DNA of 49,275 bases from Candidatus Woesearchaeota archaeon. Its GTDB lineage: Archaea > Nanobdellota > Nanobdellia > Woesearchaeales > GW2011-AR4. Shown piece by piece: positions 35,977 to 49,275 of the stretch. The stretch's first letter is position 1, and every line of letters starts with the position of its first letter. Position numbers and translations under genes: made by a program. The DNA lies in contig JAGVYA010000021.1 in NCBI GenBank assembly GCA_018303505.1, positions 1 through 49,275 of the forward strand, written 5' to 3'. The notes beneath the pieces are model-generated. The model had not been told where the DNA came from. It saw nothing but the letters and a program-made list of their open reading frames with translations, and ran no database searches.

Positions 35977-36438
35977 TTACTCCATCCTTGATGTTATTTG
36001 TCCAATATTGTTATGGCTTAAGCCTGTTTCTGTTATGGTGTAAGAAATATTCAACTGTTGATTATATTTTGAACCGGGTAATGCTGCAGCACAAGTAATT
36101 GTTCCTTGAGTTGTTGTGGTCTTTTCTCCATTTGCAAGGTTAAAGCTTGCGCTCTCACCGCAACCACCAGCTTTAATAGTGACTGATGACATGTCATAGC
36201 CTAAAGAGTTTTGTATTATAACTTGGACTCGTCCTACACCACCTGCTCCACCATTATCTACTCTATGATCTAAACAAGCAATTCCCGATTGCAAACTGCA
36301 CTTAGCTGGCAAAAACTTATCCGGGCTTAAAACTCCAAAATAAGCCAAGGCCCCTACAGCAACTAAAACAACAAGTATTGCCCACCCATAAGTCATTAAG
36401 AATTCCAATGCCGCTTGTGACTTTCTGTTAACCATCAT
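35977..36438 (-). CDS. Archaeal type IV pilin-like protein
   Basis: Class III signal RKS/QAALEFLMTYGWAIL; GAGGTGA RBS. Confidence 0.88.
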   Translation of the reverse strand: MMVNRKSQAALEFLMTYGWAILVVLVAVGALAYFGVLSPDKFLPAKCSLQSGIACLDHRVDNGGAGGVGRVQVIIQNSLGYDMSSVTIKAGGCGESASFNLANGEKTTTTQGTITCAAALPGSKYNQQLNISYTITETGLSHNNIGQITSRME

Positions 36439-36456
36439 TTTCACCTCATCATATGA

Positions 36457-36921
36457 TTATTCAACTTTTGAGTTTAAATTGCCATACATTGTTTTTGTAA
36501 GTTGTGTATTTTTTTCAGTATAGCCTATTACTATTTCCCCTTTATATCTGTCTTTTACAGCGCCATTGCTGCAAGTGCCCCCTATTAAGAAATTACTAGA
36601 AGGTCCGCCGCCAACCAATTCAGTGTTTAATGATGTACTACTGCAACTGCCCACTGTAATGCTGTTGACGGTTACGGTTCTGCCTTCAACAGTATTGGAA
36701 ATAATTAAAGTGATTTTGCTAGTTTCTACTTTATGGCCCTCGCAAAGAAAGCCTGGTTCCAAAATGCATTTTTCTGGAAGAAACTTTGCAGGGCTTAAAA
36801 CCCCAAAATAAGCAAGAGCTGCAATTGCAGCAAGAACAACAAGGATAGCCCATCCATAAGTCATCAAGAATTCCATTGCGGCTTGAGACTTTTTGTTATT
36901 AAGCTTAGTAGAAATTCTCAT
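36457..36921 (-). CDS. Archaeal type IV pilin-like protein (paralog)
   Basis: KKS/QAAMEFLMTYGWAIL; GAGGTG RBS. Confidence 0.88.
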   Translation of the reverse strand: MRISTKLNNKKSQAAMEFLMTYGWAILVVLAAIAALAYFGVLSPAKFLPEKCILEPGFLCEGHKVETSKITLIISNTVEGRTVTVNSITVGSCSSTSLNTELVGGGPSSNFLIGGTCSNGAVKDRYKGEIVIGYTEKNTQLTKTMYGNLNSKVE

Positions 36922-36979
36922 CAAATACACCTCATTTTTAAAGCCATTTTTTATTTTAAATACAAATTGAATAACTAAT

Positions 36980-37054
36980 ATTTAAATCTGTCGAAATGCT
37001 TTAGGGCATTTCGGAGATTTAAATTCCGAAAATTTCTAATTTTCGTTATTTAAA
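36980..37054. repeat. Double-hairpin element at the pilin promoter
   Basis: atttaaatct..cgaaatgc-N6-gcatttcg.agatttaaat and cgaaaatt-tct-aattttcg, flanked by tatttaaat on both sides. Confidence 0.6.
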
Positions 37055-37080
37055 TATTTCTAAGTTTAGCTTTTTATTCA

Positions 37081-38181
37081 TTAAATAAAAAAACCGAGCA
37101 ATTTGCTTGCTATTCCTTGAGCTATAAAATATAAAGTTAATGAAACAAAAATAAATATGGGTATATATTTCACCCCTGACTTTATGTTGCCCCTTTTAAT
37201 GGTTGAAATCATCATTGCAGAGAAGAGTGAAGTAAGAATTAGGGATACAATTGCAAAAATCCTGAAGTCAGATTCTGTCACCCCGGTTCCGGAGAAGCTT
37301 AGGGAAAGCCCAACCCCTCCTGCCACATTTGACGATGAGCCAAGCGCAGAGCCAAGATTCTTCACAACCTCTATTAGCACCTGGGACAATGCAAACAGGA
37401 ACGGAGCAGCAACAACAGTTGCAAATGTTATGAATATCACATAAGTTGTTACATTTGCCGACATCTCCTTAAGCATGGCTTTTTGCTCCTGTATATTCGT
37501 TGCAATCCTGTTCAGCAAATCCCCTATTTTGCCTCCTGCTTCCACGCCCTCATTGAGCATGCTTATTGACCTTTTTAAAATAACTGAGTCGTATCTTGCT
37601 GCAAACCTCTCCAACGCTGTCTTTAAGTCAGTTCCGCTCATGGTTTCTTTGGCAACCATCTCAACCTCTTTTGCCAGCACGCCAAATCTTGGCCTAATGG
37701 CATACCACAAAGCCCTGTCAATTGTCATGCCTGCGTTTATGTTAGATGCTGTCAGCTGCAAAAAATCCGGCAAGACATCTTCTATGTCAACCTTTCTCCT
37801 GAAAATCTTTAAATCAACAGCTACGTAGAACATAATCCATAAGGCAAATATCAAAATGACAAAAATAAAAACCCAAAGTACAATCATTGATGCAACAACA
37901 GTGCCCCATGTAATGCCATACGTTACAGAGAAATAATAAATAAGATAGATTGATATTGCAAGATTTATCAGAACAGCTATGTTAAAAAAGGTTTTGGACA
38001 GTCTTTGAGGGCTTATATCAACGCCAGCCCTTTCAAGATAGTCTTTTATTCTTTGCTTCCTCTCCTGCTTTACTATGCTTTTTTGCTGGGCTTTCTTAAA
38101 CTTTCTTTTGAAAAACTCAATTCTTCTTTCTGGCTGGACTATGCCAGTCTTTTTTTTAAAAAGATTTTTTATATTGAACAT
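37081..38181 (-). CDS. Type II/IV secretion system F-family (TadC-like) pilus platform protein
   Basis: LPDFLQL.A.NI.AG...D.AL, FG.LA.E, GG....LL; several TM segments. Confidence 0.88.
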   Translation of the reverse strand: MFNIKNLFKKKTGIVQPERRIEFFKRKFKKAQQKSIVKQERKQRIKDYLERAGVDISPQRLSKTFFNIAVLINLAISIYLIYYFSVTYGITWGTVVASMIVLWVFIFVILIFALWIMFYVAVDLKIFRRKVDIEDVLPDFLQLTASNINAGMTIDRALWYAIRPRFGVLAKEVEMVAKETMSGTDLKTALERFAARYDSVILKRSISMLNEGVEAGGKIGDLLNRIATNIQEQKAMLKEMSANVTTYVIFITFATVVAAPFLFALSQVLIEVVKNLGSALGSSSNVAGGVGLSLSFSGTGVTESDFRIFAIVSLILTSLFSAMMISTIKRGNIKSGVKYIPIFIFVSLTLYFIAQGIASKLLGFFI

Positions 38182-38212
38182 GGTATCTGAATATGGGTGT
38201 CTCACAAGCAAA

Positions 38213-39049
38213 TCAAAACTCAATTGCCGGCCTGGAGAACTTCACCATTGCTATGAACATGAACTGCACAAATCCAAGGAAGCCTGCAAGCGCAAGCAGA
38301 ATTGTCAGGCTAAGCTCAAATTGTATGAAGGAAGATAATATAATAAGCATTGTTATTCCCAATGACGGCAGAATCACAGCAACTATCATGTAAAACATTG
38401 CCAATGGGTTCAGTTTTTTCCCGTATTTATTGACCTCAGTCATCTGGTCCTTTGTTACCTGGTCCATGACAGAATAAAGGGATTTTGCCACATCAGAGCC
38501 TGTCCTTATGGAGTTTATTATCTGCCACAGCACTTTTCTGAAATCGTTTGAGGGAATGAACTCAACTGCCTCGTTCAGGGCATCTTCCATGCTCGTACCT
38601 AAATCAACCTTGTCTGTTATTTCCTTGAAGTACCTTCCTATGACTTCATAATTTTTTGATACATTGAGCATTGCATTATACAGAGGAACGCCAGATTCAA
38701 GCTCTATTATAATGAATCTTCCTGCAAAAACAATTTCCTTGCTGATTTCTTTTTCTTTTTTTGATATTTTGACGTCAGGCAGCCTTATCATGTAAAAAAA
38801 CATAACAAAAAATATTATTGGAACAGCAAGAAACAACACGCCCTTGAGAACATTTAATTTAGCAAGCACAAGGAACAATGCAACAACTAATCCAGTTGTC
38901 ATGTAAAATGCAGAAACAAATGTTTTTTTGATAAAATCCTCTGGTTTGTCCTCCATGCCCGCTTGCTTTAACTTTGCCTTAAGCGTTGGAAAGAATTTTG
39001 AAATCCTCTGGAACAATGTGTTTAAATTGCCTGCTTTTATTTTAATCAC
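38213..39049 (-). CDS. Type II/IV secretion system F-family (TadB/TadC-like) platform protein
   Basis: SGVPL..A, F..I...V..G...E.AL, Y.KKLNP.AM.YM. Confidence 0.88.
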   Translation of the reverse strand: MIKIKAGNLNTLFQRISKFFPTLKAKLKQAGMEDKPEDFIKKTFVSAFYMTTGLVVALFLVLAKLNVLKGVLFLAVPIIFFVMFFYMIRLPDVKISKKEKEISKEIVFAGRFIIIELESGVPLYNAMLNVSKNYEVIGRYFKEITDKVDLGTSMEDALNEAVEFIPSNDFRKVLWQIINSIRTGSDVAKSLYSVMDQVTKDQMTEVNKYGKKLNPLAMFYMIVAVILPSLGITMLIILSSFIQFELSLTILLALAGFLGFVQFMFIAMVKFSRPAIEF

Positions 39050-39058
39050 CTCAACTGC

Positions 39059-39175
39059 AGTGGAATGCGAGTGAGCTTCGTTCAGTCGAATGCGAGAGCT
39101 CGTGTGACATGCGAAAGCTCGCTTTCGCTCGCTTAACTCAACGCTCGCTCAGCTACCCGAAACTCGCTCACAACT
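39059..39175 (+). repeat. Nested palindromic elements (copy B)
   Basis: Outer agtggaatgcgagtgagc...aactcgctcacaact enclosing an inner agtcgaatgcgag... copy and a gcgaaagc-tc-gctttcgc hairpin. Confidence 0.75.
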
Positions 39176-39181
39176 CAATCA

Positions 39182-39228
39182 GTTGACACTTTGGGCGACA
39201 TTCCACCTTCGGTGAAGTCCCCGTCAAC
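39182..39228. repeat. Imperfect hairpin with TTC/GAA triloop
   Basis: gttgac...cacc-ttc-ggtg...gtcaac. Confidence 0.55.
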
Positions 39229-39267
39229 ATAATTATTGTTTTTATTAAACTTAACAAATATGATTTT

Positions 39268-40920
39268 TTAATCGTCCAAAAGCTTGTTTTTTCTTACAGA
39301 AGACATCAAATTGTCCGTGTTTGTGTAGTATTCTGCCATGACCCTTCCAACAGTGTCTACTGTGTTAATATTACTCTTTACAAGCCACTTCAACACAGCT
39401 TCTTTTTCATTTAGAGATTTGCTTATCTCGCTTCTGGTAAATCCTGTAAATAATTCTATAGTGCTCATTAACGCTTTTGAGTTTGCAACCTTTTTCAATA
39501 CACCCTTTCTTATGTCCAATTGTATAAGCACATTTGCCTCAGAATCTGGAAGTATTTCAGCAATCTGGAATGTTTTTCTCACACCAGTTCTTCTGTTTCT
39601 GTACTGGACAACTATCATTGATATTGCTGGAAGCATTGTCTTTGGGATTTCAATAGGAGGATTAGTAAGCCTTGTTATTGTTTCTCTGGTGTCATTTGCA
39701 TGCACGGTTGCATAAACAGAATGACCTGTGTGAATTGCCTCGAAAAGCACCTCTGCTTCCCTTTTTCTTCTTATTTCTCCTACAATAATCCTGTCAGGCC
39801 TCATTCTTAATGAGTTGACAAGCAAGTCAAGCATTGAAACTTCACCCTTGCCTTCTGGATTTGGCAGCCTTGTTACCATAGGAATCCAATGCAAAAATTT
39901 TGGCAATTGAATCTCGCGAGTGTCTTCTATGCTTATAATTCTCTGGTTAGGCGGAAAGAAATTTGCAACTACATTAAGCATTGATGTTTTTCCAGTTGCA
40001 GTGCCGCCGGAAATTAAGGTTGACAGCTCGTATTGGACTCCAAGCCATATTAATGCAGCTGCTTCTGTTGAAATTGTGTTGTCTTTTATGAAGTCTGTTA
40101 TAGTCCATGGCTTTGCTGCAAACTTTCTCAATGTGATGGTGTTGCCTTTAACAGAAATAGGCTCAAGAGTTGCATTTACCCTGTCTCCTCCTCTGAGATG
40201 AGCGTCCATTAATGGCTCAAGTATTGTCAGTTGCCTTCCAACCCTTCTTCCAATCATTGCAGCATAATGCCTTATCTGGTCTTCGCTTGCAAGCATTATA
40301 GTTGTCTTCAGCCAGCCAAATTTGACATGGTAAACCCACACAGGCTCCTCAGCGTCGTTAATTGCTATTTCCTCAAGATTTATGTCATCCATTAAAATTT
40401 CAATGCTTCCTAAGCCAAGGCTTCTTTGTACGAGATAAGATTTTAGGAAATTTGCTGTTGTTTCATTGGCATCTGGGAAATGCTTATTAACCAATGTTGT
40501 TATTGCGTCCATAAATCTCTGCTCAATAATTCCAGTGTCTTTTGTTGTGAGAATATCAACCATGCCCAAGCTTACTTGGGATGTTAACTCTTCTCTTATC
40601 TTTTCAAGAATTATTTCTGTGTTCTTGCTTATGCTTGAGATTGAAACTTCGTATATGGGCACAAATTCGCCCTTTTTTTTGTATATATTAATTGTAATTG
40701 GTATATTGTCAGAAACAAAGTTGTATGCTGCAAGAGGCTTTATGCCCTCTTTTTTAAGAGAAGTTAGCTCTATTTTTTCCTCTTTCTTTTTGCTTTCTTT
40801 TATAGCAATCGGAGGCAACCCAGTAACTTTCACTTCTCCCTTTAAACCCTCTTCTTTAAGAGAAGTAATATTCTCTAGCGCATTTTTCTCACGTTTCTTT
40901 AGACTAAATCGTTTCAGCAA
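39268..40920 (-). CDS. Type IV pilus assembly ATPase (VirB11/CpaF/ArlI family)
   Basis: GGTATGKT Walker A, SIEDTRE, LRMRPDRIIVGE, TGH...T.HA. TTG start at 40920 follows GAGGTG. Confidence 0.95.
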   Translation of the reverse strand: MLKRFSLKKREKNALENITSLKEEGLKGEVKVTGLPPIAIKESKKKEEKIELTSLKKEGIKPLAAYNFVSDNIPITINIYKKKGEFVPIYEVSISSISKNTEIILEKIREELTSQVSLGMVDILTTKDTGIIEQRFMDAITTLVNKHFPDANETTANFLKSYLVQRSLGLGSIEILMDDINLEEIAINDAEEPVWVYHVKFGWLKTTIMLASEDQIRHYAAMIGRRVGRQLTILEPLMDAHLRGGDRVNATLEPISVKGNTITLRKFAAKPWTITDFIKDNTISTEAAALIWLGVQYELSTLISGGTATGKTSMLNVVANFFPPNQRIISIEDTREIQLPKFLHWIPMVTRLPNPEGKGEVSMLDLLVNSLRMRPDRIIVGEIRRKREAEVLFEAIHTGHSVYATVHANDTRETITRLTNPPIEIPKTMLPAISMIVVQYRNRRTGVRKTFQIAEILPDSEANVLIQLDIRKGVLKKVANSKALMSTIELFTGFTRSEISKSLNEKEAVLKWLVKSNINTVDTVGRVMAEYYTNTDNLMSSVRKNKLLDD

Positions 40921-40965
40921 AATATACACCTCTTTTTTAATCAAACAATGCGAATATTAAATTTT

Positions 40966-42111
40966 TTATCTTCTCATAAATGAGCCTAATTCTTTGAGTT
41001 CCGCTTCGAACTGGGTTTTCTTTTTGTTTACCTCATTAAACTTTTTTTCTAAATCAATCATTTGCTTGCCTACATCCCCGCTTTTGGCAGTTAATTGGAA
41101 TGACTTGGCTTTTTTTATTAACTCTATCAGGCTTTTTTCCAAATCATCACGGTCTTTATTTACCCTGTCAACTAAGTTTACAACAGCTAATTTTTTATCA
41201 AAAAACTCCTTGACTTTTTTTGTTACATCCTTTACACCTGCAACGCTTTTCTGCTTTTGCGCTATTTTTTTCATAATCTTGTCTTGGATTTCAAGCACTT
41301 TCCTTTCCTGCTCCTGGCTTTTCTCTATCAAAGGCTCAATAATGGATTTTTCCTCCTCAACTCGCTGCTTTATATCATCTATAAGCAAGATCAGCTTTTC
41401 TATGTGCAATTCTGAATTTTTTATCGCTGCGTCCTCCTCCAAAACCTTTTTTTCTATCAAGCCTATCATTGCTTTTAGCTCTGTTAGCCTTTTATTCAGG
41501 ATTTTCTCGCTTTCCTCTATGGATTGGGCTTCTGCCTTTTCTCTGCTTAATTCCTCCCTTTCCTTTGTTATGCCCACAGCTATTTCCTGGTATTTTTTTT
41601 GCTCTCTTGAAACCTGCTGTGTTAACTCTCCTATCTTAAGCTTTGCTTCATTTTTTTGCTCTTCCACTTGCTTCTGCAGATCTTCTTTTAATTGCTGGTA
41701 TCTCTCAAGCTCTTTTAAGTCCTCTCTTACAGTATCAAGCTCCATTCCAAGCTCGCTTTTCAATCTGTCAAATTCACTTTTTACTTTTTTTAAGTCCTCT
41801 GCCTGTTTTTCAAGAAAATTTAAGCTTACTTCAGCCTTTCTGACAAAGACATCCCTTTTGCTTGTAAATTCCTTTGCCTTTGCCTCTACTTCTTTCTTAG
41901 TTAATTTTCTTTCAACAAGATAAGGCTTTGTTAATTTGTACTCTACACTTATTATGCCCTCTTCTTCGAGAAAATCAACCCATTCCTGGATTACAGTCAT
42001 GCTTACACCCAGCTCTTTTGCAGCGTCTTGCAATGCAATTCTTCCCCTTTCCTTGACAAGACTGACTAATTTGTCTACTCCTGTCTCTATTACACTGCTT
42101 TCTATTTCCAT
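40966..42111 (-). CDS. N-terminal winged-helix-like domain plus long coiled coil
   Basis: ETGVDKLV.LV...G.I....AAKELGV.....EW...LEEEG.I, followed by about 300 aa of heptad-rich E/K sequence. Confidence 0.75.
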   Translation of the reverse strand: MEIESSVIETGVDKLVSLVKERGRIALQDAAKELGVSMTVIQEWVDFLEEEGIISVEYKLTKPYLVERKLTKKEVEAKAKEFTSKRDVFVRKAEVSLNFLEKQAEDLKKVKSEFDRLKSELGMELDTVREDLKELERYQQLKEDLQKQVEEQKNEAKLKIGELTQQVSREQKKYQEIAVGITKEREELSREKAEAQSIEESEKILNKRLTELKAMIGLIEKKVLEEDAAIKNSELHIEKLILLIDDIKQRVEEEKSIIEPLIEKSQEQERKVLEIQDKIMKKIAQKQKSVAGVKDVTKKVKEFFDKKLAVVNLVDRVNKDRDDLEKSLIELIKKAKSFQLTAKSGDVGKQMIDLEKKFNEVNKKKTQFEAELKELGSFMRR

Positions 42112-42155
42112 CTTTACAGAATTTCTTTAATTATATGTTTAAAAATGTTATGATT

Positions 42156-43085
42156 TTATATTGTTATATTCTCCACCTGATAAAATTTCAAATGTCCTTG
42201 GTCAATTTTAAACCATTCTGGCGTATTATTAATCCTAAAATTAGTTGTGGATTTTGTTCCAAAATAAATATAATCAACTACGCTTCTGTCTTTAAGAGTT
42301 AAGCCTTGTTGCTGAAATTCATCCAGATTAACTAAACTTTCAATTCCATAAGTTGAGTTGCCAAGATTGCCTTCAAATCTCATAAGAAAGCTCGGGCTGT
42401 CATTATGAGCAATATACCATGAATTATTTGCATGGATTAGAAGATTATCAACTTTTCCACTAATAACAAATTGAGTAATGTTGGATTTTACAATTGTATT
42501 AGTTACCCTTCCTTTGCTGTTGATGATATAAAGAGGATCTTCAAAACCAATAATACTTATGCTTTGTGTCAAATATCTATCTCTTATCCAATAGCTTGTA
42601 TTTCTTTTATCTCTGATATCCAAACTTAGATTCAAGCCAACAGTAACACTCCAAGGATCTGTGTGGTTTATTTTAACTTCATTCACTGTAAAATTAAATT
42701 TTATATCAACTTTATTAGCTTCAGTAGAAATTTTATTCGCCCAGTCTGTAAAAGTAGAGTCTTTCATTAAGCCAAGAGGCTGCTGCTTTATCGTTCCGTT
42801 TAGAAAAGACTCCTTAAATCTTTCATTTATATTATCGATAAATGTACCATTGTTGGCAATAAACTGGTTAAAGCTTAATAAAGTTCTAAATCCAGCAATA
42901 TAAGCGCCATTATTTATATCTCTTTCAACATCTTTAAGGAAGAAATTTACAGTTTCAATTCTTGTCTGTATAACATCCATCTTGTCGCTCAGCCTATATG
43001 TGCTGTAAGCGCTGTAAGTCACGATTATGACTATTGTCAAGGCAATTGCAGCTGTTGTGTAAAAAATACCTCTTTTTTTTGTCAT
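42156..43085 (-). CDS. Pilin-like accessory protein with class III signal peptide
   Basis: KKRG/IFYT followed by a hydrophobic helix; EDPLY motif. Confidence 0.7.
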   Translation of the reverse strand: MTKKRGIFYTTAAIALTIVIIVTYSAYSTYRLSDKMDVIQTRIETVNFFLKDVERDINNGAYIAGFRTLLSFNQFIANNGTFIDNINERFKESFLNGTIKQQPLGLMKDSTFTDWANKISTEANKVDIKFNFTVNEVKINHTDPWSVTVGLNLSLDIRDKRNTSYWIRDRYLTQSISIIGFEDPLYIINSKGRVTNTIVKSNITQFVISGKVDNLLIHANNSWYIAHNDSPSFLMRFEGNLGNSTYGIESLVNLDEFQQQGLTLKDRSVVDYIYFGTKSTTNFRINNTPEWFKIDQGHLKFYQVENITI

Positions 43086-43240
43086 GATAAAATTTATTCT
43101 TAACTCAAAACATCGTAATACTATATTTTTGTACCATCTGATACATAAATATATCGATTATTTTAATTAGTGTTATTTCATTAATTACCTTTTGACAGAA
43201 ATTTATTAGAAAATATTCACTAAATTTTAGAATTATTTAT

Positions 43241-43558
43241 CTAACTGCTACTAATTTTCAATTTTATTGATTCTGGTTCTAGCTCGAACTCTATTCTTTT
43301 ACCTTTTGTAATTCTGTATATTTGTTCTATTGATTTTGGTATTCTCAATATTTTGCTCTTGCCTAAAACACCCACCTTCGAAGCGACTTTTTTTGCAGTT
43401 TTAAGTTTGTTATACTTTAATATAGGCTGTATATCTGCCTCATCATAGACTATATCCTTACATTTAGGGCACTGCCAAGCATTTACTTTAAAGCCTTGGA
43501 AATTATCCATTATCCTATTCATATCCATATTGCATTTCCAACACTTCAAGCTTTTCAT
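43241..43558 (-). CDS. Putative antitoxin: Zn-ribbon (YgiT/MqsA-like) plus AbrB/SpoVT domain
   Basis: CWKC...CPKC, then KVG.LG.S..LRIPK.I......KG..IE. Confidence 0.7.
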   Translation of the reverse strand: MKSLKCWKCNMDMNRIMDNFQGFKVNAWQCPKCKDIVYDEADIQPILKYNKLKTAKKVASKVGVLGKSKILRIPKSIEQIYRITKGKRIEFELEPESIKLKISSS

Positions 43559-43563
43559 ACTGC

Positions 43564-43827
43564 TCACCTTTTCTTATAACTAAATACCCCAAAATGAATC
43601 ACAAGCCAGTAATTACCACAGTCTACAATTACTGCTTTATGAATTTTGTTACCTTTCTTTACACAATTCTCTATAATATTTGGTTTTCTTTTTGAACTTC
43701 CACATGGGTAACCTTCTTCTAATATTTCCAAAACATCATAAAGATCTTTTTTAAATTGCCAAAGTTCGTTAGAGGCTGCTTTGGTAGCTTTTATTTCCTT
43801 ATTTTGATATTTTGGAAATATATTCAT
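43564..43827 (-). CDS. Putative toxin (RelE/DUF4258-like small basic protein)
   Basis: 87 aa, immediately upstream of the Zn-ribbon/AbrB gene, with its own TATA (tttaaata about 43859-43866). Confidence 0.55.
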   Translation of the reverse strand: MNIFPKYQNKEIKATKAASNELWQFKKDLYDVLEILEEGYPCGSSKRKPNIIENCVKKGNKIHKAVIVDCGNYWLVIHFGVFSYKKR

Positions 43828-43871
43828 GAATATCTCTAATATTAAAAAAGAGATATTATATTTAAACCTTT

Positions 43872-46800
43872 CTACTCCCACACCCTTATCTCTATTATAG
43901 CAGGCCCCCACAAGGAAGGAACTTTTGAGATTGTTAGTGTGTTCACATTAAGATTGCTCTCGTCGATATTGACATTAAGTTTGCCGTTCTTGTCTATATC
44001 CAAATTGCTGAAAAGCTGGAAAACTGCATTGTCCAGCGCATCATTTGCATCATAAGTTTTGGATGCGCTTGTATAACTGCATGTATCTGCTCCGCTATAA
44101 GTTGAAGGAACTTTTATTGTAGAAAATGTTCCATCCTCAAAGCTTACTGTCCAAGAACAGCCATCTGATTTAGCAACAACACTGCTGTAATCAGCAAATC
44201 CGCTTAGCAATAAAGTATATATTGCTCTGTCATCGCTTGAGCCATTTGTTGGTGCTGTTGAGTTAACGCCTGTGCTTATTGTAATGCTGTTGCTTCCTTC
44301 ATTTATATTGCCTACTGGAATATTTACTGCAAATGGATCGCCTAAAATCTGATAGTCACTTCCGTAGTCGCTTAATCTATAGACTGTATTTCCATTAACA
44401 ACTAACTTGTCTGTCCACTTGCTTCCAGAATAAGATGTTACTTTTGCATCTGAAACTGATGTATTTGCATAAATTGTCAAAGTTCCAGTTGAAATATTGT
44501 TACCAAACCTGTCAGTTTCAAAGCTAAGCGGTACTTTATTGAATTGAATATCTGGTGCTGAGTAGTTAAATTCTATATAAGAATCAGGATAAAGCCTTGT
44601 TTTTTGTATGTTTCCGCTGGTTATATTTATGTACTGAGCTTCAAAAGTAATATTCACAACCGATTGTGCTATTTGCGTGTATATACTCAGCAGTTCATCC
44701 TCATTGTTGCTAGTGTAGAAGTGTGAGCAATCATCACAGCATGCAGTTTGGTTTAATGTGTTGATGGCAGTTGCGCCTACATTACCAAATGCAATTGCAT
44801 AGATCTTAATTCCATACAAATCATTAGCTTCGCAAGCCTTTGCAATTGTCTCTGCTCTTGCTCCTGCAGAATCACATCCTGAACAATCTCCTATTTTTGT
44901 ATTTGCCTCGCCATCACTCATCACAACCATTGATTTAGACTTGGCATAACTATAGCCGTCATCGCTCCAAACAACGCTTAAATTTACATTTCTGAAGCGC
45001 CATTCATCATTGTCTCCACTGGTTCTTTTACAGCCAGAAGTTGTTCCTGAAGTAAAATTTATTTCGTTCATTCCATTTTTCATCCACGCTGTTGGCACAT
45101 CAATTAGCACTTTTTGCCAAACATTTGTATTGTTCCATTCCTGATAATCAACTCTGCCAATGTAATTGCCGTTTACGTAAACACAATCAAAATAATTTGG
45201 GCTGACATCAATTGCTTCAAACTCTAGGCTTACAGCTTTCGTTTTAGATTTGTCTACATTAATGTTCAGATTAACTGTGGCAATTTGCTGGAACGGCGAA
45301 TCACCAATTTGCACTTCGCTAGAGGCTGTGTTAAACTCAATGCCAGGCGCAGAGCTTTGAGTTTGCCATACACTTATTTTTACATCCTTAAAGTCCCAAT
45401 TATCATTAGTCCCCGATGTCGCAAAGCAACCGTTAGTAGTTCCTGCTGTTATCGTTACATTTGCAACATTACCAACAAACCATTTTGGCTTTAAAGGGTA
45501 AGAACATGTATGCCATCCAGGATCGCCTAATGGTTCGCACATTCTGCCTAGATAGATTCCATTAAAATATATGCATTGTTGGTAATTATTTTCAGTCTCT
45601 ACCGATTTTCCTAGCACCGTCAAACGTGATTTGATCAATTTATTTGGGTTAATAGTAACGTTAAATTTTTCAGTCACTGAATAAAGAGAAGTTGCATCGC
45701 CTATGCTGAATCTGGTCTCATTAATTGCTGAAGTCTCATTGAAGCCATGCAATTTTTCTTCCTCAGTCAAAAGCTCTGTCGCGCTTGCAATGCCGCAAGA
45801 AATACAAGTGTAGTCGCAAAATTCATTTGAGTAATTGCTGACACGATACTTAAGTGATGCGTTGTCAATGCTGAAGTCATGAAAATCACATACTGGATCA
45901 GTTTCTGAGCCATAACCAACTAAGGCTACTTGGTTGCCTTGCGTTGCCAGAATTGTGTCAATGAATTTTTTATTCGATTTAATGGCTACATTGTCTCTTC
46001 TATCATGGCAGCCTCCAGTTGGGTTTGAATCGCAAATTCCTGCTGTGCAATTGACATTTACATCGCAAGCATTCATGCTGCCTGTTCTGTCTGTAATCAA
46101 AGCTGCATCAGAATTTGAGCCTCCTAAAATATAGCTTACATTCCTCAATCCCATTCTAATTGGAATGGTTTTTTTGCCGAGAAGATTGTAGTTTAGCATG
46201 CCTGAAATATTTGAATTATTTAACAGAATTGTTTGCTCGCCTAAAGAGGAATTTGATTCAAAAACAGTTGTATTGCCTATTGTCAGGTAAATTTGATATT
46301 GGCTTAGGAAATGAAGCGATATATTCATATTGCTTGGCTCATTAGGGGCGTAAATCGATGAATACAAATTAATAACACCCTCAATGCCAGGGAACAAATA
46401 TTTTTCATACCCATGAGTTTGTGTGTCATTGTAAGAAGAAGTTGTGTAAGTTGCTCTTAAAAACCCTCCGGCAATATAGTTATTTTCTGATGCAAAGTTT
46501 ATTGTTATATTATTTTCTCCTGGCTTAAAATTAACCAAATAAGCATTGCTAATATTCCATTTGTCAGCAAGCATATTGCCTCCTCCAGAAGAGCCCTTGA
46601 CATAACTTCCTGAAAAAAAGCCGTTGATGTAAAGATCAAAATTACCGCCTGAATCCACTTCAAGATAAGAGCTGTTGAAAGAAATTACATCATTAGGCAG
46701 CACTAATTTTTTTGTTAAATTGCCATCTCCTTCATAACCCCCAAAATAAACATAGGCATTTGTCTTCTTGCTTTTAATTCCATTCAGCAGAACTCTTGCT

Positions 46801-47264
46801 GTGAATCCCTCTGTCGGCTTTGCCTTTGCAATGCCGCTTATGATTTTTCTTGAGCTGACAAGCGCTCTTTTAACAGGGATATTCCTTGAATAAATCTCTT
46901 CACCATTGATTAATACGCTAACTCCATAACTGCTTGGTATAATGTCATCAGTAAGATTTTTTGTAAGATTATATGACAAATTCAATTTCTCTTCAGTGTT
47001 TTCAGCCCAGAAATCTCCAATCTGCTCAATAATGGTATTATCTGTATTTGTTATTTCCCCATTTGCAATCAACGTCTTCACATAATCATTTTTCACATCA
47101 CCAACAGTCAAAGTGGAAAAAACCCTCACTAAATCCTGAGAAGCATAGTTAACATTGACTTGCTGCTGCTCCTGAGAATAAAAATTAGAAACAAGCAGAA
47201 CTGCAATTATTATAATGCCTGATGCCAGCAAGCTGTCGATTGTAAAAAAAATTGCCTTTTTCAT
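43872..47264 (-). CDS. Large pilus-associated adhesin with von Willebrand A domain
   Basis: KKA/IFFTIDS class III-like signal, MIDAS DRTGS, T....GI, VMSDG, IYAIAFG; Cys-rich. Confidence 0.82.
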   Translation of the reverse strand: MKKAIFFTIDSLLASGIIIIAVLLVSNFYSQEQQQVNVNYASQDLVRVFSTLTVGDVKNDYVKTLIANGEITNTDNTIIEQIGDFWAENTEEKLNLSYNLTKNLTDDIIPSSYGVSVLINGEEIYSRNIPVKRALVSSRKIISGIAKAKPTEGFTARVLLNGIKSKKTNAYVYFGGYEGDGNLTKKLVLPNDVISFNSSYLEVDSGGNFDLYINGFFSGSYVKGSSGGGNMLADKWNISNAYLVNFKPGENNITINFASENNYIAGGFLRATYTTSSYNDTQTHGYEKYLFPGIEGVINLYSSIYAPNEPSNMNISLHFLSQYQIYLTIGNTTVFESNSSLGEQTILLNNSNISGMLNYNLLGKKTIPIRMGLRNVSYILGGSNSDAALITDRTGSMNACDVNVNCTAGICDSNPTGGCHDRRDNVAIKSNKKFIDTILATQGNQVALVGYGSETDPVCDFHDFSIDNASLKYRVSNYSNEFCDYTCISCGIASATELLTEEEKLHGFNETSAINETRFSIGDATSLYSVTEKFNVTINPNKLIKSRLTVLGKSVETENNYQQCIYFNGIYLGRMCEPLGDPGWHTCSYPLKPKWFVGNVANVTITAGTTNGCFATSGTNDNWDFKDVKISVWQTQSSAPGIEFNTASSEVQIGDSPFQQIATVNLNINVDKSKTKAVSLEFEAIDVSPNYFDCVYVNGNYIGRVDYQEWNNTNVWQKVLIDVPTAWMKNGMNEINFTSGTTSGCKRTSGDNDEWRFRNVNLSVVWSDDGYSYAKSKSMVVMSDGEANTKIGDCSGCDSAGARAETIAKACEANDLYGIKIYAIAFGNVGATAINTLNQTACCDDCSHFYTSNNEDELLSIYTQIAQSVVNITFEAQYINITSGNIQKTRLYPDSYIEFNYSAPDIQFNKVPLSFETDRFGNNISTGTLTIYANTSVSDAKVTSYSGSKWTDKLVVNGNTVYRLSDYGSDYQILGDPFAVNIPVGNINEGSNSITISTGVNSTAPTNGSSDDRAIYTLLLSGFADYSSVVAKSDGCSWTVSFEDGTFSTIKVPSTYSGADTCSYTSASKTYDANDALDNAVFQLFSNLDIDKNGKLNVNIDESNLNVNTLTISKVPSLWGPAIIEIRVWE

Positions 47265-47412
47265 TATTTTGGTTTTAGTTATGTTTATTTTATTGTAATC
47301 GTGATTGATTTTGTTATTTTTTGTTATCTCCCTTAACGCAATATTTTTCTTTTACCATAAATTTTTTCAACAAACATCACAAACGGTTCACTTTCTTCAT
47401 GTTTGCTTCTAA

Positions 47413-47465
47413 ATGTTGGAAATCGGAGATTTCCGAGCATGATCGGAAATGCGAAGCATTTACCG
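47413..47465. repeat. Twin triloop hairpins
   Basis: ggaaatc-gga-gatttcc and cggaaatgc-gaa-gcatttaccg. Confidence 0.7.
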
Positions 47466-47596
47466 ACAAGTCATTGCTGATTTTTGAATTTTTTATTTAT
47501 TGAAATTTTTGATGTATAATCCTCATTATTGTTTCAAATTGCGGATATTTTTGAATATTTATTTTATTTATTGTGTTTTTGTTGTTGATTCTATTT

Positions 47597-47692
47597 CCCG
47601 AGAAATTTTATTAAAATTTCTGGGCACAGGAAATCGGTGAGATGCGAGTGAGCTCATTGCGAACTCGCTCACAACTGTCCGATTTCCTCGTG
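47597..47692. repeat. Hairpin pair with palindromic element copy C inserted in one loop
   Basis: agaaatttt-att-aaaatttct; aggaaatc[ggtgagatgcgagtgagc-tcattgc-gaactcgctcacaact]gtccgatttcct. Confidence 0.75.
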
Positions 47693-47717
47693 TATTGAAT
47701 TATTATTATTTTTTATT

Positions 47718-48010
47718 TTTAAACATCAAAATTCCACTTATGTTTCATAAGTGGTTCAAGTATAGCTAAACATAACATGGAATTTGGATGTCAGGAAAAT
47801 GCAATGCATTTTCAGGATCTCGAAAATCTATGATTTTCGCGATGCTCGAAAACCACCACAAATAAGTGGAATTTTGTAGCCATGAAAATTCAAGGAATTT
47901 TCAGGGTTTCGAAAATCGTGGATTTTCGCAATGTCCAAAACCACTGAATGTGTTAGTAACCATAAGTAACCATAATCATGCCACCAATCTATGATTGGTG
48001 GTTTTTGACA
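47718..48010. repeat. ~285-bp multi-hairpin dispersed element, copy 2
   Basis: Near-identical to 14464..14744, with an extra 10-bp tandem duplication agtaaccata. Confidence 0.9.
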
Positions 48011-48020
48011 ACTTAATTTA

Positions 48021-49275
48021 TTATTGCCATAAATAAATTATCATTCTGACAATTTTTGAATTGTAAGTCAAGTAGCGCTCAGTCTTCACAAGCTTATTTT
48101 TGCTTATGCCTGTAACATTAATAGGATTGCATGTGCCTTCTATAAAACTTAATGAAAGATCTTCTACTACTTTTATGAAATCTCCATTGAAAATTGGAAC
48201 ATCAAAGTCGCTAAAGAAATAGACAGTGCCATTGCCGTATTGCCACTTAGCAATTGCATAATCTTCAGGAGTTTTATTAAAAGAGGCGATAATTTTGAAG
48301 TTAACCGCTGGAAACGGGTTGTAGTCATCATCGTTAGGGTCAGTTTCAATAGGAAGTACTGTATTATTAGTTACAAAGTAATATTGTATAAATGTGATAG
48401 CATCTCCAACGTTTAACGCTAAGTATTGGTCGCTGTTATTAACTATTGCTGCTCTTTCTGGCTCTGATTGCCCTGTTTTTTTCCAGAATCGAATTCCATT
48501 TAAATCTGGTCCCGAGCCTGATGTTGTTAGTTCTCCGCTTATGATTATGTACCCTCCTCTAGCGGTATAGTTGTTAAGCTCTCTATAATATTTATTGTAA
48601 TCTCCGCCACTTAATAATGGATGTTCGATCACTACTAAACTGTACTTGCTCAAGTTGCTCATTAAGCCATCTAAGCCATATATGTCATTATTCTGGTCAT
48701 CAAAATAAATATCCGCTTTAAATACATTATTCATAAAATCTTTCAAGAATGAATCTGCTGGATCTTGGTAATAATAAGCGCTTTTGATATTGTAGCTGAC
48801 ATTTACAGAAGGGTATCCTATGGCGCATACGCCGTTAATGTTGATAATCTCTCCTTTCTCATTTACAAAAAATACAACATAATCATACACAGTTCCAAAT
48901 TTTTTTTTTGTGATGGTATAGTTAAGCTGCTTGAAGGATTTTACTTTTGTCGCATTTACTTTTTGCTCATCAGCAATTCCTATTCTTATTACTGTTGTAT
49001 TGTCCCAGTTTGCGGGATAGCCGCTTAAAGTCAATGAAGAGGACATTGCCTTTGCATCTGTAAGCAAAGTATTAAGTTCTCCCTTTTCCTGCTTCTGGAA
49101 ATTGGTTGTATAGCTGAAATAAACAACAAGGGTAAAGGTGAAGAGCAGCAATGCTATTGCAAAGTCCATGTACCAAGCCTGACCTGAACGCGAGCTTGAG
49201 ATGAATGCGAGCGTGCGCATTCTCGCACGCAACTCGAAGCGTTCTCGCAAGCATCTTGCTTTAGTTGATATAGAT
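48021..49275 (-). CDS. Pilin-like accessory protein, 5' end probably outside the window; nested palindromic insertion in the signal peptide
   Basis: Frame is open to the window edge (SISTKA...QAWYMDF plus hydrophobic helix). G.P.NW and IG motifs, and a C-terminal ERYL...IYLW. Confidence 0.75.
   Translation of the reverse strand, partial: SISTKARCLRERFELRARMRTLAFISSSRSGQAWYMDFAIALLLFTFTLVVYFSYTTNFQKQEKGELNTLLTDAKAMSSSLTLSGYPANWDNTTVIRIGIADEQKVNATKVKSFKQLNYTITKKKFGTVYDYVVFFVNEKGEIININGVCAIGYPSVNVSYNIKSAYYYQDPADSFLKDFMNNVFKADIYFDDQNNDIYGLDGLMSNLSKYSLVVIEHPLLSGGDYNKYYRELNNYTARGGYIIISGELTTSGSGPDLNGIRFWKKTGQSEPERAAIVNNSDQYLALNVGDAITFIQYYFVTNNTVLPIETDPNDDDYNPFPAVNFKIIASFNKTPEDYAIAKWQYGNGTVYFFSDFDVPIFNGDFIKVVEDLSLSFIEGTCNPINVTGISKNKLVKTERYLTYNSKIVRMIIYLWQ
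49182..49256 (+). repeat. Nested palindromic elements (copy D: 39-bp outer plus 36-bp inner), in-frame
   Basis: Outer acctgaacgcgagcttg[...]cgaagcgttctcgcaagcatct; inner agatgaatgcgagcgtgcgcattctcgcacgcaact (49199-49234). Confidence 0.8.

Follow-up and report, generated by a model that had tools for sequence, protein, structure and literature searches.

A composite GC-rich repeat in frame within the predicted leader of a modular pilin-like gene in Woesearchaeota

Results

A GC-rich repeat lies between two overlapping pilin-like genes

We analysed a 49,275-nt stretch of DNA from a Candidatus Woesearchaeota archaeon (contig JAGVYA010000021.1, assembly GCA_018303505.1), referred to here as the window, which is the entire contig C17 of genome G000 (1.3 Mb, 88% complete); other genomes of the genus are labelled G001 and onwards, and collected loci carry L numbers. 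The window closes, on the minus strand, with a gene of a type IV pilus-like operon encoding a modular pilin-like protein (the target gene, 48021 to past 49275), the conserved part of which begins QAWYMDFAIALLLFTF. The predicted leader of this protein overlaps the end of an upstream pilin-like gene and contains a GC-rich repeat, the element considered here. Relatives of the target gene come from Candidatus Woesearchaeota archaeon, mostly from groundwater.

On the minus strand the gene reads ..ATA TCA ACT AAA GCA, then 75 nt, then CAG GCT TGG TAC ATG GAC... The frame before the element reads S-I-S-T-K-A, and deletion of 49182-49256 (75 nt, or 25 extra codons with no stop) yields ..STKA/QAWYMDF (a slash marks the predicted cleavage site), exactly as a first-pass annotation of this DNA had claimed. 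The element is GC-rich, far above the 30-39% GC background of the contig. That annotation had also stressed a length in multiples of three without a stop codon; the 25 codons are in frame, but the absence of a stop is uninformative by itself, because all three minus-strand frames of the element are open.

The proposal that the element is nested is well supported. A repeat search within it returned direct pairs at 83% and 76%, its two halves being related, and inverted pairs of 19 nt at 74% and 13 nt at 85%, and the inner part (query ~22-61) and the outer left arm (query 1-22) are each found alone in other contexts and genomes. Additionally, an outer-only 39-nt copy occupies the same pilin site in G010 (L058) and in L092, which is the intermediate that the first reading had predicted. 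Its further claim of two successive insertions at this site does not follow, as the 72-nt composite recurs elsewhere as a unit (100% at C71:4806-4877, 99% in G011 and 89% twice in G004) and a single event or recombination could explain it. Partial relatives occur on at least 12 other contigs.

The contig terminates 19 nt past the element, and any GTG start of the target gene therefore lies outside the window. A second contig, C71 (C71:5531-5629), overlaps the window end (49177-49275) by exactly 99 nt at 100% identity and contributes a 127-residue pilin-like upstream gene (MDSKA/QVSAEFF...). A Joint Genome Institute (JGI) metagenome contig, L097, is 100% identical to C71 over 700 nt upstream and through the element; its downstream allele falls to ~70% identity from the sixth base after the element. 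L097 is either a real mosaic that arose when the element recombined or a chimera produced in assembly where the repeat is shared, and a mosaic or chimera of this kind accounts for the break in the G000 assembly, which is located exactly at the repeat. Thus, we infer rather than prove the join of C71 to C17, from the 99-nt overlap, synteny in all relatives and, for the upstream side only, L097. No near-identical full-length copy of the window gene was found in a scan of metagenome contigs (best 67%).

Reading frame is kept across many insert lengths

We collected 56 distinct junctions from 36 genus genomes, further GTDB records and JGI metagenome contigs. Frame was counted in the 42 loci with a syntenic pilin-like upstream gene; not included were the other 14 junctions, which stand free or have a neighbour that was not recognised, and which either begin at an ATG of their own or are different upstream. 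The spacing between upstream stop and Gln codon took 17 values (4, 13, 16, 19, 25, 28, 43, 49, 58, 61, 64, 67, 76, 79, 91, 118 and 169 nt) and was 1 mod 3 at all but one of the 42 syntenic loci (41 of 42); in the lone exception an ATG of its own follows the stop. The frame has thus survived 16 or more changes of length, and on comparison of these sequences chance is not a credible cause. For 12 simple intergenic copies of G000 the cores measure 24, 28 (four copies), 30, 32 (five copies) and 33 nt, and only three of the 12 have a length divisible by three; since intergenic copies do not follow this rule, the in-frame lengths at the pilin site point to selection.

The syntenic loci fall into three states. 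Empty sites (..STKA/Q) make up 10 of the 42, as predicted from the window alone, and orthologs therefore do not all contain the segment. Short AT-rich extensions of 9-24 nt are present in 16, some being recognisable remnants of the element right arm (..SRLA/Q in the closest relative, G004). The other 16 bear elements of 39-165 nt: a single 39-nt unit in G010 and L092, the same outer element with a different inner one in G014, two units in tandem in G026, a triple nest in G005 whose middle and inner parts equal the window composite, and 165 nt in G013. Element state is scattered over the protein tree (a quick tree only), where starred branches force at least six changes for 12 rows and clustering of states is no better than with shuffled labels (283 of 500 shuffles as low).

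Close comparisons suggest that this turnover is recent. Locus L025 (G014) and metagenome contig L101 are 99.5-99.7% identical over flanks of 627 and 1201 nt and differ by the exact presence or absence of 72 nt; the target is not duplicated, and three further substitutions lie immediately beside the junction. Furthermore, in three of four sequencing runs, one of which may be the source sample, short assembled contigs (Logan, 60-61 nt) link 49181 to 49258 with one letter between, giving an empty AAA-GCC/CAG allele. The best explanation of these sequences would be a pilin site that turns over quickly: elements insert, nest within one another, shrink to short remnants by internal deletions that keep the frame, and are lost or exchanged through recombination.

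Gene overlap sets the position of the element

The first-pass annotation placed the insertion exactly at a prepilin cleavage site. The position is exact, but gene overlap, not the cleavage site itself, accounts for it. The stop codon of the upstream gene sits within ..ACT AAA GCA.., overlapping the -2 Lys codon, and the element begins 4 nt past that stop. Only ~4 nt, from the upstream stop to the Gln codon with the element excluded, are free of both genes, and because this gap is the sole place where an insertion harms neither protein, the placement is largely forced by the overlap rather than by any affinity for the cleavage site.

All 14 orthologs that do not overlap the upstream pilin gene, being free-standing or having a different neighbour, start at their own ATG as M-x-x-(K/R)-(A/S)/Q, with a GAGGTG-type ribosome-binding site before the ATG where the DNA was inspected. 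This agrees with the class III-type junction claimed for the target. The Met at +5 is not the start, because it is replaced by T, L, S or V in seven orthologs, including the element-bearing G010. The codon aligned with the window ATA (49269-49271) is ATG in five orthologs of the overlapping arrangement, and those five have no GTG two codons upstream. The predicted start of the target gene is GTG, just beyond the window, or this ATA, both of them upstream of the element. The ATA stands 6 nt behind a GGAGGTG ribosome-binding site, and the alternative GTG falls inside that site; the genus may initiate at ATA or another near-cognate codon.

A second pilin-like gene carries nested repeats at the same place

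A second pilin-like gene in G000 (C27:26344-26985, -; loci L060-L089) begins MAESHQVKGE and continues through 59 element-derived residues ending ..SSRSS/QSSLEYLLVV, so that 59 residues of its 69-residue leader are built from nested repeats. Its orthologs were found in 42 of 43 genus genomes, and most are empty, reading MEESHQVKA/Q or similar (..VKA/QSSLEY). Four genomes have one 36-39-nt unit here (for example ..ARG-RCLHKYASSRSG/Q), G004 has a nest related to the window composite and G023 a long mixed insert. As in the target gene, the upstream stop overlaps the -2 Lys codon and the element right arm adjoins the Gln codon in the same frame. In a third putative class III protein (C27:17008-17823, +; ..SRKS/QITLIIAIAIF..), a segment of 17 residues derived from a repeat lies farther upstream within the leader.

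Copies in frame are found in at least eight open reading frames (ORFs) of G000, at least six of them beyond the two pilin genes (Table 1). The in-frame repeats across these ORFs resemble, genome-wide, the situation of the Rickettsia palindromic elements (RPEs).

The repeat family is confined to one genus

With the 75-nt element as query, the family was detected in 19 of 43 genus genomes and in none of 120 other genera of the order. Most of it is intergenic in G000, where 83 of 94 GC-rich islands lie outside long ORFs. We examined 8 of 12 fetched loci for the context of the composite: these eight copies, in other species, lie amid AT-rich or other repeat sequence and none is at a pilin junction, and four are inside the loop of an AT-rich palindrome. 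No common motif was found at intergenic insertion sites beyond 'loop of another palindrome'.

Among simple copies, the core of C30:25324-25347 is 24 nt and those of C65:24117-24148 and C47:29957-29988 are 32 nt, the difference being a tandem duplication of an 8-nt motif; therefore units also change by slippage, not by nesting alone. A predicted tRNA-His (C1:964-1127, -) has a 92-nt intron at position 37/38 that holds a related-family repeat nested in the loop of another hairpin.

The junction and protein resemble those of archaeal pilins

Residues around the junction were tallied by eye from aligned sequences. At -1 the window has Gly, and element alleles have G, S or A in 15 of 16 cases, C in one and never Thr. 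Of 15 outermost intergenic copies in G000, approximately 9 have the end ..TTCA-ACT and would encode Thr (also by eye, and not all copies are independent); the lack of Thr at -1 is a hint of selection on the junction for cleavage. All 16 element alleles have their charged residue at -3, whereas 37 of 40 alleles without an element have K/R at -2. Thus, the new ..RSG/Q junction that had been proposed keeps a small -1 residue, but its charged residue is displaced from -2 to -3. The predicted leader is ~30-33 residues in the window gene and up to ~60-70 in relatives and in the second gene.

A hydrophobic stretch of ~20 residues follows the cleavage site directly. An AlphaFold2 model built from 37 orthologs (mean predicted local distance difference test score 79) has a helix at residues 2-48 and an alpha/beta globular part. 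A fold search with the globular part (~70-386) returned domain-level likeness only, with a template modelling (TM) score of ~0.3, to GH42 galactosidase C-terminal, GATase1-like and IFT52 N-terminal domains. The model fits a modular pilin, the module of which received no functional assignment from this search.

Table 1. Coordinates of the element, its surroundings in the window and related in-frame repeats in genome G000
Feature	Position	Strand	Basis or comment
Composite GC-rich repeat, in frame, 25 leader residues (RCLRER...SSSRSG)	49182..49256	-	Identical 72-nt copy at C71:4806-4877
Outer element left arm, ~21 nt, boundary +/-1-3 nt	49236..49256	-	By-eye comparison with the G010 39-nt copy (L058); alone in four other genomes
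Inner element, ~36 nt, 7-bp hairpin stem, in-frame ATG 49218-49220	49200..49235	-	Fold z -1.68; alone or inside other outers (C27:26867, G019, G027, G011)
Outer element right arm, read ..S-S-R-S-G, gives residues -1 to -3	49182..49199	-	Same frame, flush with the Gln codon in 16/16 element-bearing alleles
Overlap zone: last codons and TAA stop (49261-49263) of upstream pilin-like gene; in the other frame S-I-S-T-K-A of target leader; ATA 49269-49271	49257..49275	-	
Gln codon, predicted +1 of mature protein	49179..49181	-	Invariant in 37/37 aligned orthologs
Hydrophobic H-domain, mature residues 6-24, within predicted long N-terminal helix	49110..49166	-	Sequence and AlphaFold2 helix 2-48
Remainder of 386-residue modular pilin-like protein (alpha/beta globular part) and stop	48021..49178	-	Orthologs in 36/36 genus genomes searched
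Rest of type IV pilus-like operon	35977..47264	-	Pilins, membrane proteins, ATPase, VWA giant
Related GC-rich repeats in frame inside long ORFs	C3:3222-3255, C5:1361-1428, C72:12817-12846, C75:2106-2170, C27:13897-13935, C67:4054-4214		Open flanks of 53-249 codons on both sides

Discussion

The anatomy of the element, the comparative pattern across loci, the conservation of frame, and presence and absence between near-identical sequences are directly established. We infer from them that the element is translated through, that the protein is cleaved at the new junction and that the insert is neutral. The overall account that we regard as probable is that a genus-specific GC-rich repeat stands in frame within the leader of a modular pilin gene, where it survives by virtue of a length in multiples of three and of a leader that peptidase is expected to remove.

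The steps of this account would be as follows. A selfish family of short (~24-40 nt), GC-rich, hairpin-prone and genus-specific repeats, like repetitive extragenic palindromic (REP) sequences, miniature inverted-repeat transposable elements, called MITEs, and RPEs, would spread, its members tending to nest in one another. Insertion would be tolerated only in the ~4 nt that follow the upstream stop and precede the Gln codon, with the conserved Gln at +1 and the hydrophobic helix lying beyond. Repeats landing in this gap would persist only if their length is a multiple of three, and translation would turn them into an Arg/Ser/Cys-rich stretch that lengthens the cytoplasmic leader; prepilin peptidase, for which a Peptidase_A24 gene is present, would be expected to remove this leader. 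The right arm, always in one frame (..S-R-S-(G/S/A)), would swap K-A/Q for R-S-G/Q; the -1 residue would stay small, with a basic residue close by. The core of the first-pass inference, an extra peptide tolerated in the leader, is thus retained as an in-frame repeat in a cleavable-type leader with the frame kept at 41 of 42 loci; its two-step insertion and canonical new junction are not.

A number of observations weigh against this account. A charged residue at -2 is found in none of the 16 element alleles, which have S, A or T there (the window has Ser at -2 and Arg at -3), and a review describes this charged residue as critical for archaeal prepilin peptidases (PMC4371748). The predicted leaders exceed the 6-26 residues published for characterised systems (PMC4471445). 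Pfam and NCBIfam gave no pilin family over cut-off for the target, a canonical-start ortholog, the upstream gene, the operon pilins or the second pilin. In-frame TTG (49248-49250) and ATG (49218-49220) codons within the element are possible alternative starts; L092 has an upstream GTG followed by TGA, L036 has neither GTG nor ATG upstream, and in such alleles translation may begin at ATA or inside the element. The loci behind the frame count are related, the 17 length classes being a lower bound on events and not independent trials, and no formal probability is attached to them. No transposase accounts for mobility among the two kinds searched for in this metagenome-assembled genome (MAG, 88% complete): a Y1_Tnp (PF01797) profile search of G000 gave no match, and a TnpB zinc-ribbon search gave one sub-threshold match. 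A further caveat concerns folding: taken whole, the 87-nt region has no advantage over shuffled sequence (z -0.54 for RNA and -0.22 for DNA).

On this last point, the inner 7-bp hairpin is weakly above shuffles (11 of 200 shuffles equally good; Table 1) and simple intergenic family copies fold well above them (z -3.0, -3.3 and -2.3). The description of the element as palindromic therefore fits the simple copies and the inner stem, and is only partly apt for the family member in the window. A strong terminator-like hairpin at the window copy was considered and rejected, as the whole-element fold is indistinguishable from shuffles. An Rfam scan of both contig ends (3475 nt) found no family at E up to 1.

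Translation might instead begin inside the element (TTG 49248-49250 or ATG 49218-49220) or downstream of it, leaving the repeat an intergenic or 5' untranslated hairpin like most copies. We judge this unlikely, although the intergenic location of most of the family is in its favour, as are the start of the element only 4 nt past the upstream stop and the in-frame ATG, TTG or GTG inside several alleles; the internal ATG would give the window gene a 13-residue leader, and L092 and L036 lack a usable upstream GTG or ATG. A downstream start had been named at the outset as what would undo the coding interpretation, and of the candidates the +5 Met is ruled out by its absence from seven orthologs, G010 among them, while the starts within the element could still serve. 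Against an untranslated spacer, frame is kept through 17 length classes where there would be no need for it and intergenic copies are not multiples of three; element alleles L025, L021, L023 and L013 have no internal ATG, and L052 has a clear in-frame ATG upstream of its element.

The repeats could also be functional, either as a hairpin in the mRNA through which translational coupling or stability is tuned between the two overlapping pilin genes, or as portable homology for the exchange of pilin-module alleles among strains. The identity of L097 to C71 through the element and ~70% identity thereafter would suit a functional role, as would the assembly break with its 99-nt overlap, the substitutions clustered beside the junction in the L025/L101 pair and the bearing of elements at the same relative place by two different pilin genes. 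However, metagenome assemblers can create chimeras at shared repeats and L097 is possibly such an artefact, the window copy folds no better than shuffles, states are scattered with many species lacking any element, and overlap geometry alone accounts for the placement. We thus think a functional role quite improbable.

A stronger proposal combines several of these ideas: the repeats would mark prepilin junctions as hot spots for remodelling of surface-pilus genes and would be portable homology for allele swaps among co-occurring strains, their products would be 30-69-residue Arg/Ser/Cys-rich propeptides, and the peptidase would accept a basic -3, jointly amounting to repeat-driven diversification of an episymbiont attachment organelle. 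The allele-swap part rests on the hint that an identical upstream gene and element are joined to downstream alleles only ~70% identical. As a whole, this proposal is doubtful.

Removal of the element from the transcript, as a bulge-helix-bulge intron cut by the archaeal splicing endonuclease or through other RNA processing, is very improbable. Archaeal splicing endonuclease can act on mRNAs, and a related element does lie within the predicted tRNA-His intron; yet splicing would make multiple-of-three lengths needless when frame is kept at 41 of 42 loci, the minimum-energy fold has no bulge-helix-bulge shape and Rfam gave no match. An assembly artefact, in which a repeat was misjoined to the gene at a contig end, is scarcely credible: the contig does stop 19 nt past the element and a 100% identical copy exists elsewhere in the bin, but gene-specific sequence flanks the element on both sides within the window, the independent JGI contig L097 shows this element at this junction too, 49150-49275 is spanned by Logan contigs from several runs, and ten other species have related elements at the same site.

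Returning to the in-frame leader repeat, in-frame palindromic repeats are classic for Rickettsia, according to a MITE review (PMC10969869). As characterised there, RPEs share with the present family a lineage-restricted set of repeated palindromes in a small AT-rich genome of a host-dependent microbe, with copies inside ORFs that keep the frame and add a peptide (PMC10969869). The comparison is by description, not by sequence, and RPEs differ in their length of ~150 bp (about 100-150 bp) and conserved encoded peptide, where units here are 24-40 nt and nest. Here, in contrast, the bearer is an archaeon and the element sits within a removable leader of class III, its place fixed by gene overlap.

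The family also resembles REP sequences, bacterial interspersed mosaic elements (BIMEs) and MITEs, all being short GC-rich imperfect palindromes in many copies, mostly intergenic and clustered or nested. A woesearchaeal genome is listed among the archaea richest in MITEs, at 105 per Mb, in a survey (PMC11602168). Unlike MITEs, the family shows no duplicated target site in L025 versus L101, the single clean comparison of a filled and an empty locus, and has poor terminal inverted repeats (13 nt at 85%, 19 nt at 74%); its units are under the 50-bp size usually called MITE, and some copies are predicted to be translated. It differs from REP/BIME systems in that no Y1/RAYT transposase (REP-associated tyrosine transposase) was found in G000, at the completeness given above.

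With archaeal class III signal peptides of the EppA type (Gln at +1), as outlined in a review (PMC4371748), the target shares a short basic leader, a small -1 residue, a hydrophobic helix, a pilus operon and an A24 peptidase. The element allele departs from them in its basic residue at -3, its leader of ~30 or more residues and the lack of a curated pilin profile match. Our literature search found no cleavage test in any DPANN archaeon. The protein is also akin to modular type IV pilins, a concept set out in a published abstract (PMC8179133), in combining an N-terminal pilin helix with a globular part of ~340 residues, and differs from them in that its module has domain-level fold likeness only (TM ~0.3). 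A literature search, which did not cover subscription-only papers, found no description of repeats in prepilin leaders or of a Woesearchaeota repeat family.

If the in-frame account is correct, insertion of repeats into coding sequence in the manner of Rickettsia would extend to DPANN archaea. The loci would form a natural series of selfish repeats entering coding sequence, from empty sites through one unit and nests to in-frame decay, in two genes and dozens of species, and a cleavable leader squeezed between overlapping genes may act as a permissive landing strip. Natural alleles (K-A/Q, R-S-G/Q and leaders of 5 to ~70 residues) could serve as substrates for probing the specificity of DPANN prepilin peptidase, in organisms that probably attach to their hosts by means of pili. 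In annotation, software that predicts start codons and signal peptides will overlook such genes or give them a wrong start, and assemblies are interrupted at the repeats.

Additional features of the locus

The pilus-like operon (36-49 kb, -) encodes a T2SSE ATPase (39268-40944) and a giant protein with a VWA domain (43872-47264), together with a pair of polytopic membrane proteins and two pilins of the form ..KS/QAA(L/M)EF. The Peptidase_A24 (PF01478) gene lies elsewhere in the genome (C77:10058-10399, 62.8 bits). Two small ORFs of 108 and 115 residues, one with CxxC pairs, are present between the giant VWA protein and the next pilus-operon gene (43241-43911, -).

The intergenic region downstream of the target gene (47264-48021) is dense in palindromes. 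Here a GC-rich unit (~47638-47676) sits inside a GGAAATCG/CGATTTCC hairpin, accompanied by AT-rich hairpins and by one of the form CCACCAAT..ATTGGTGG that is similar to ones on C71.

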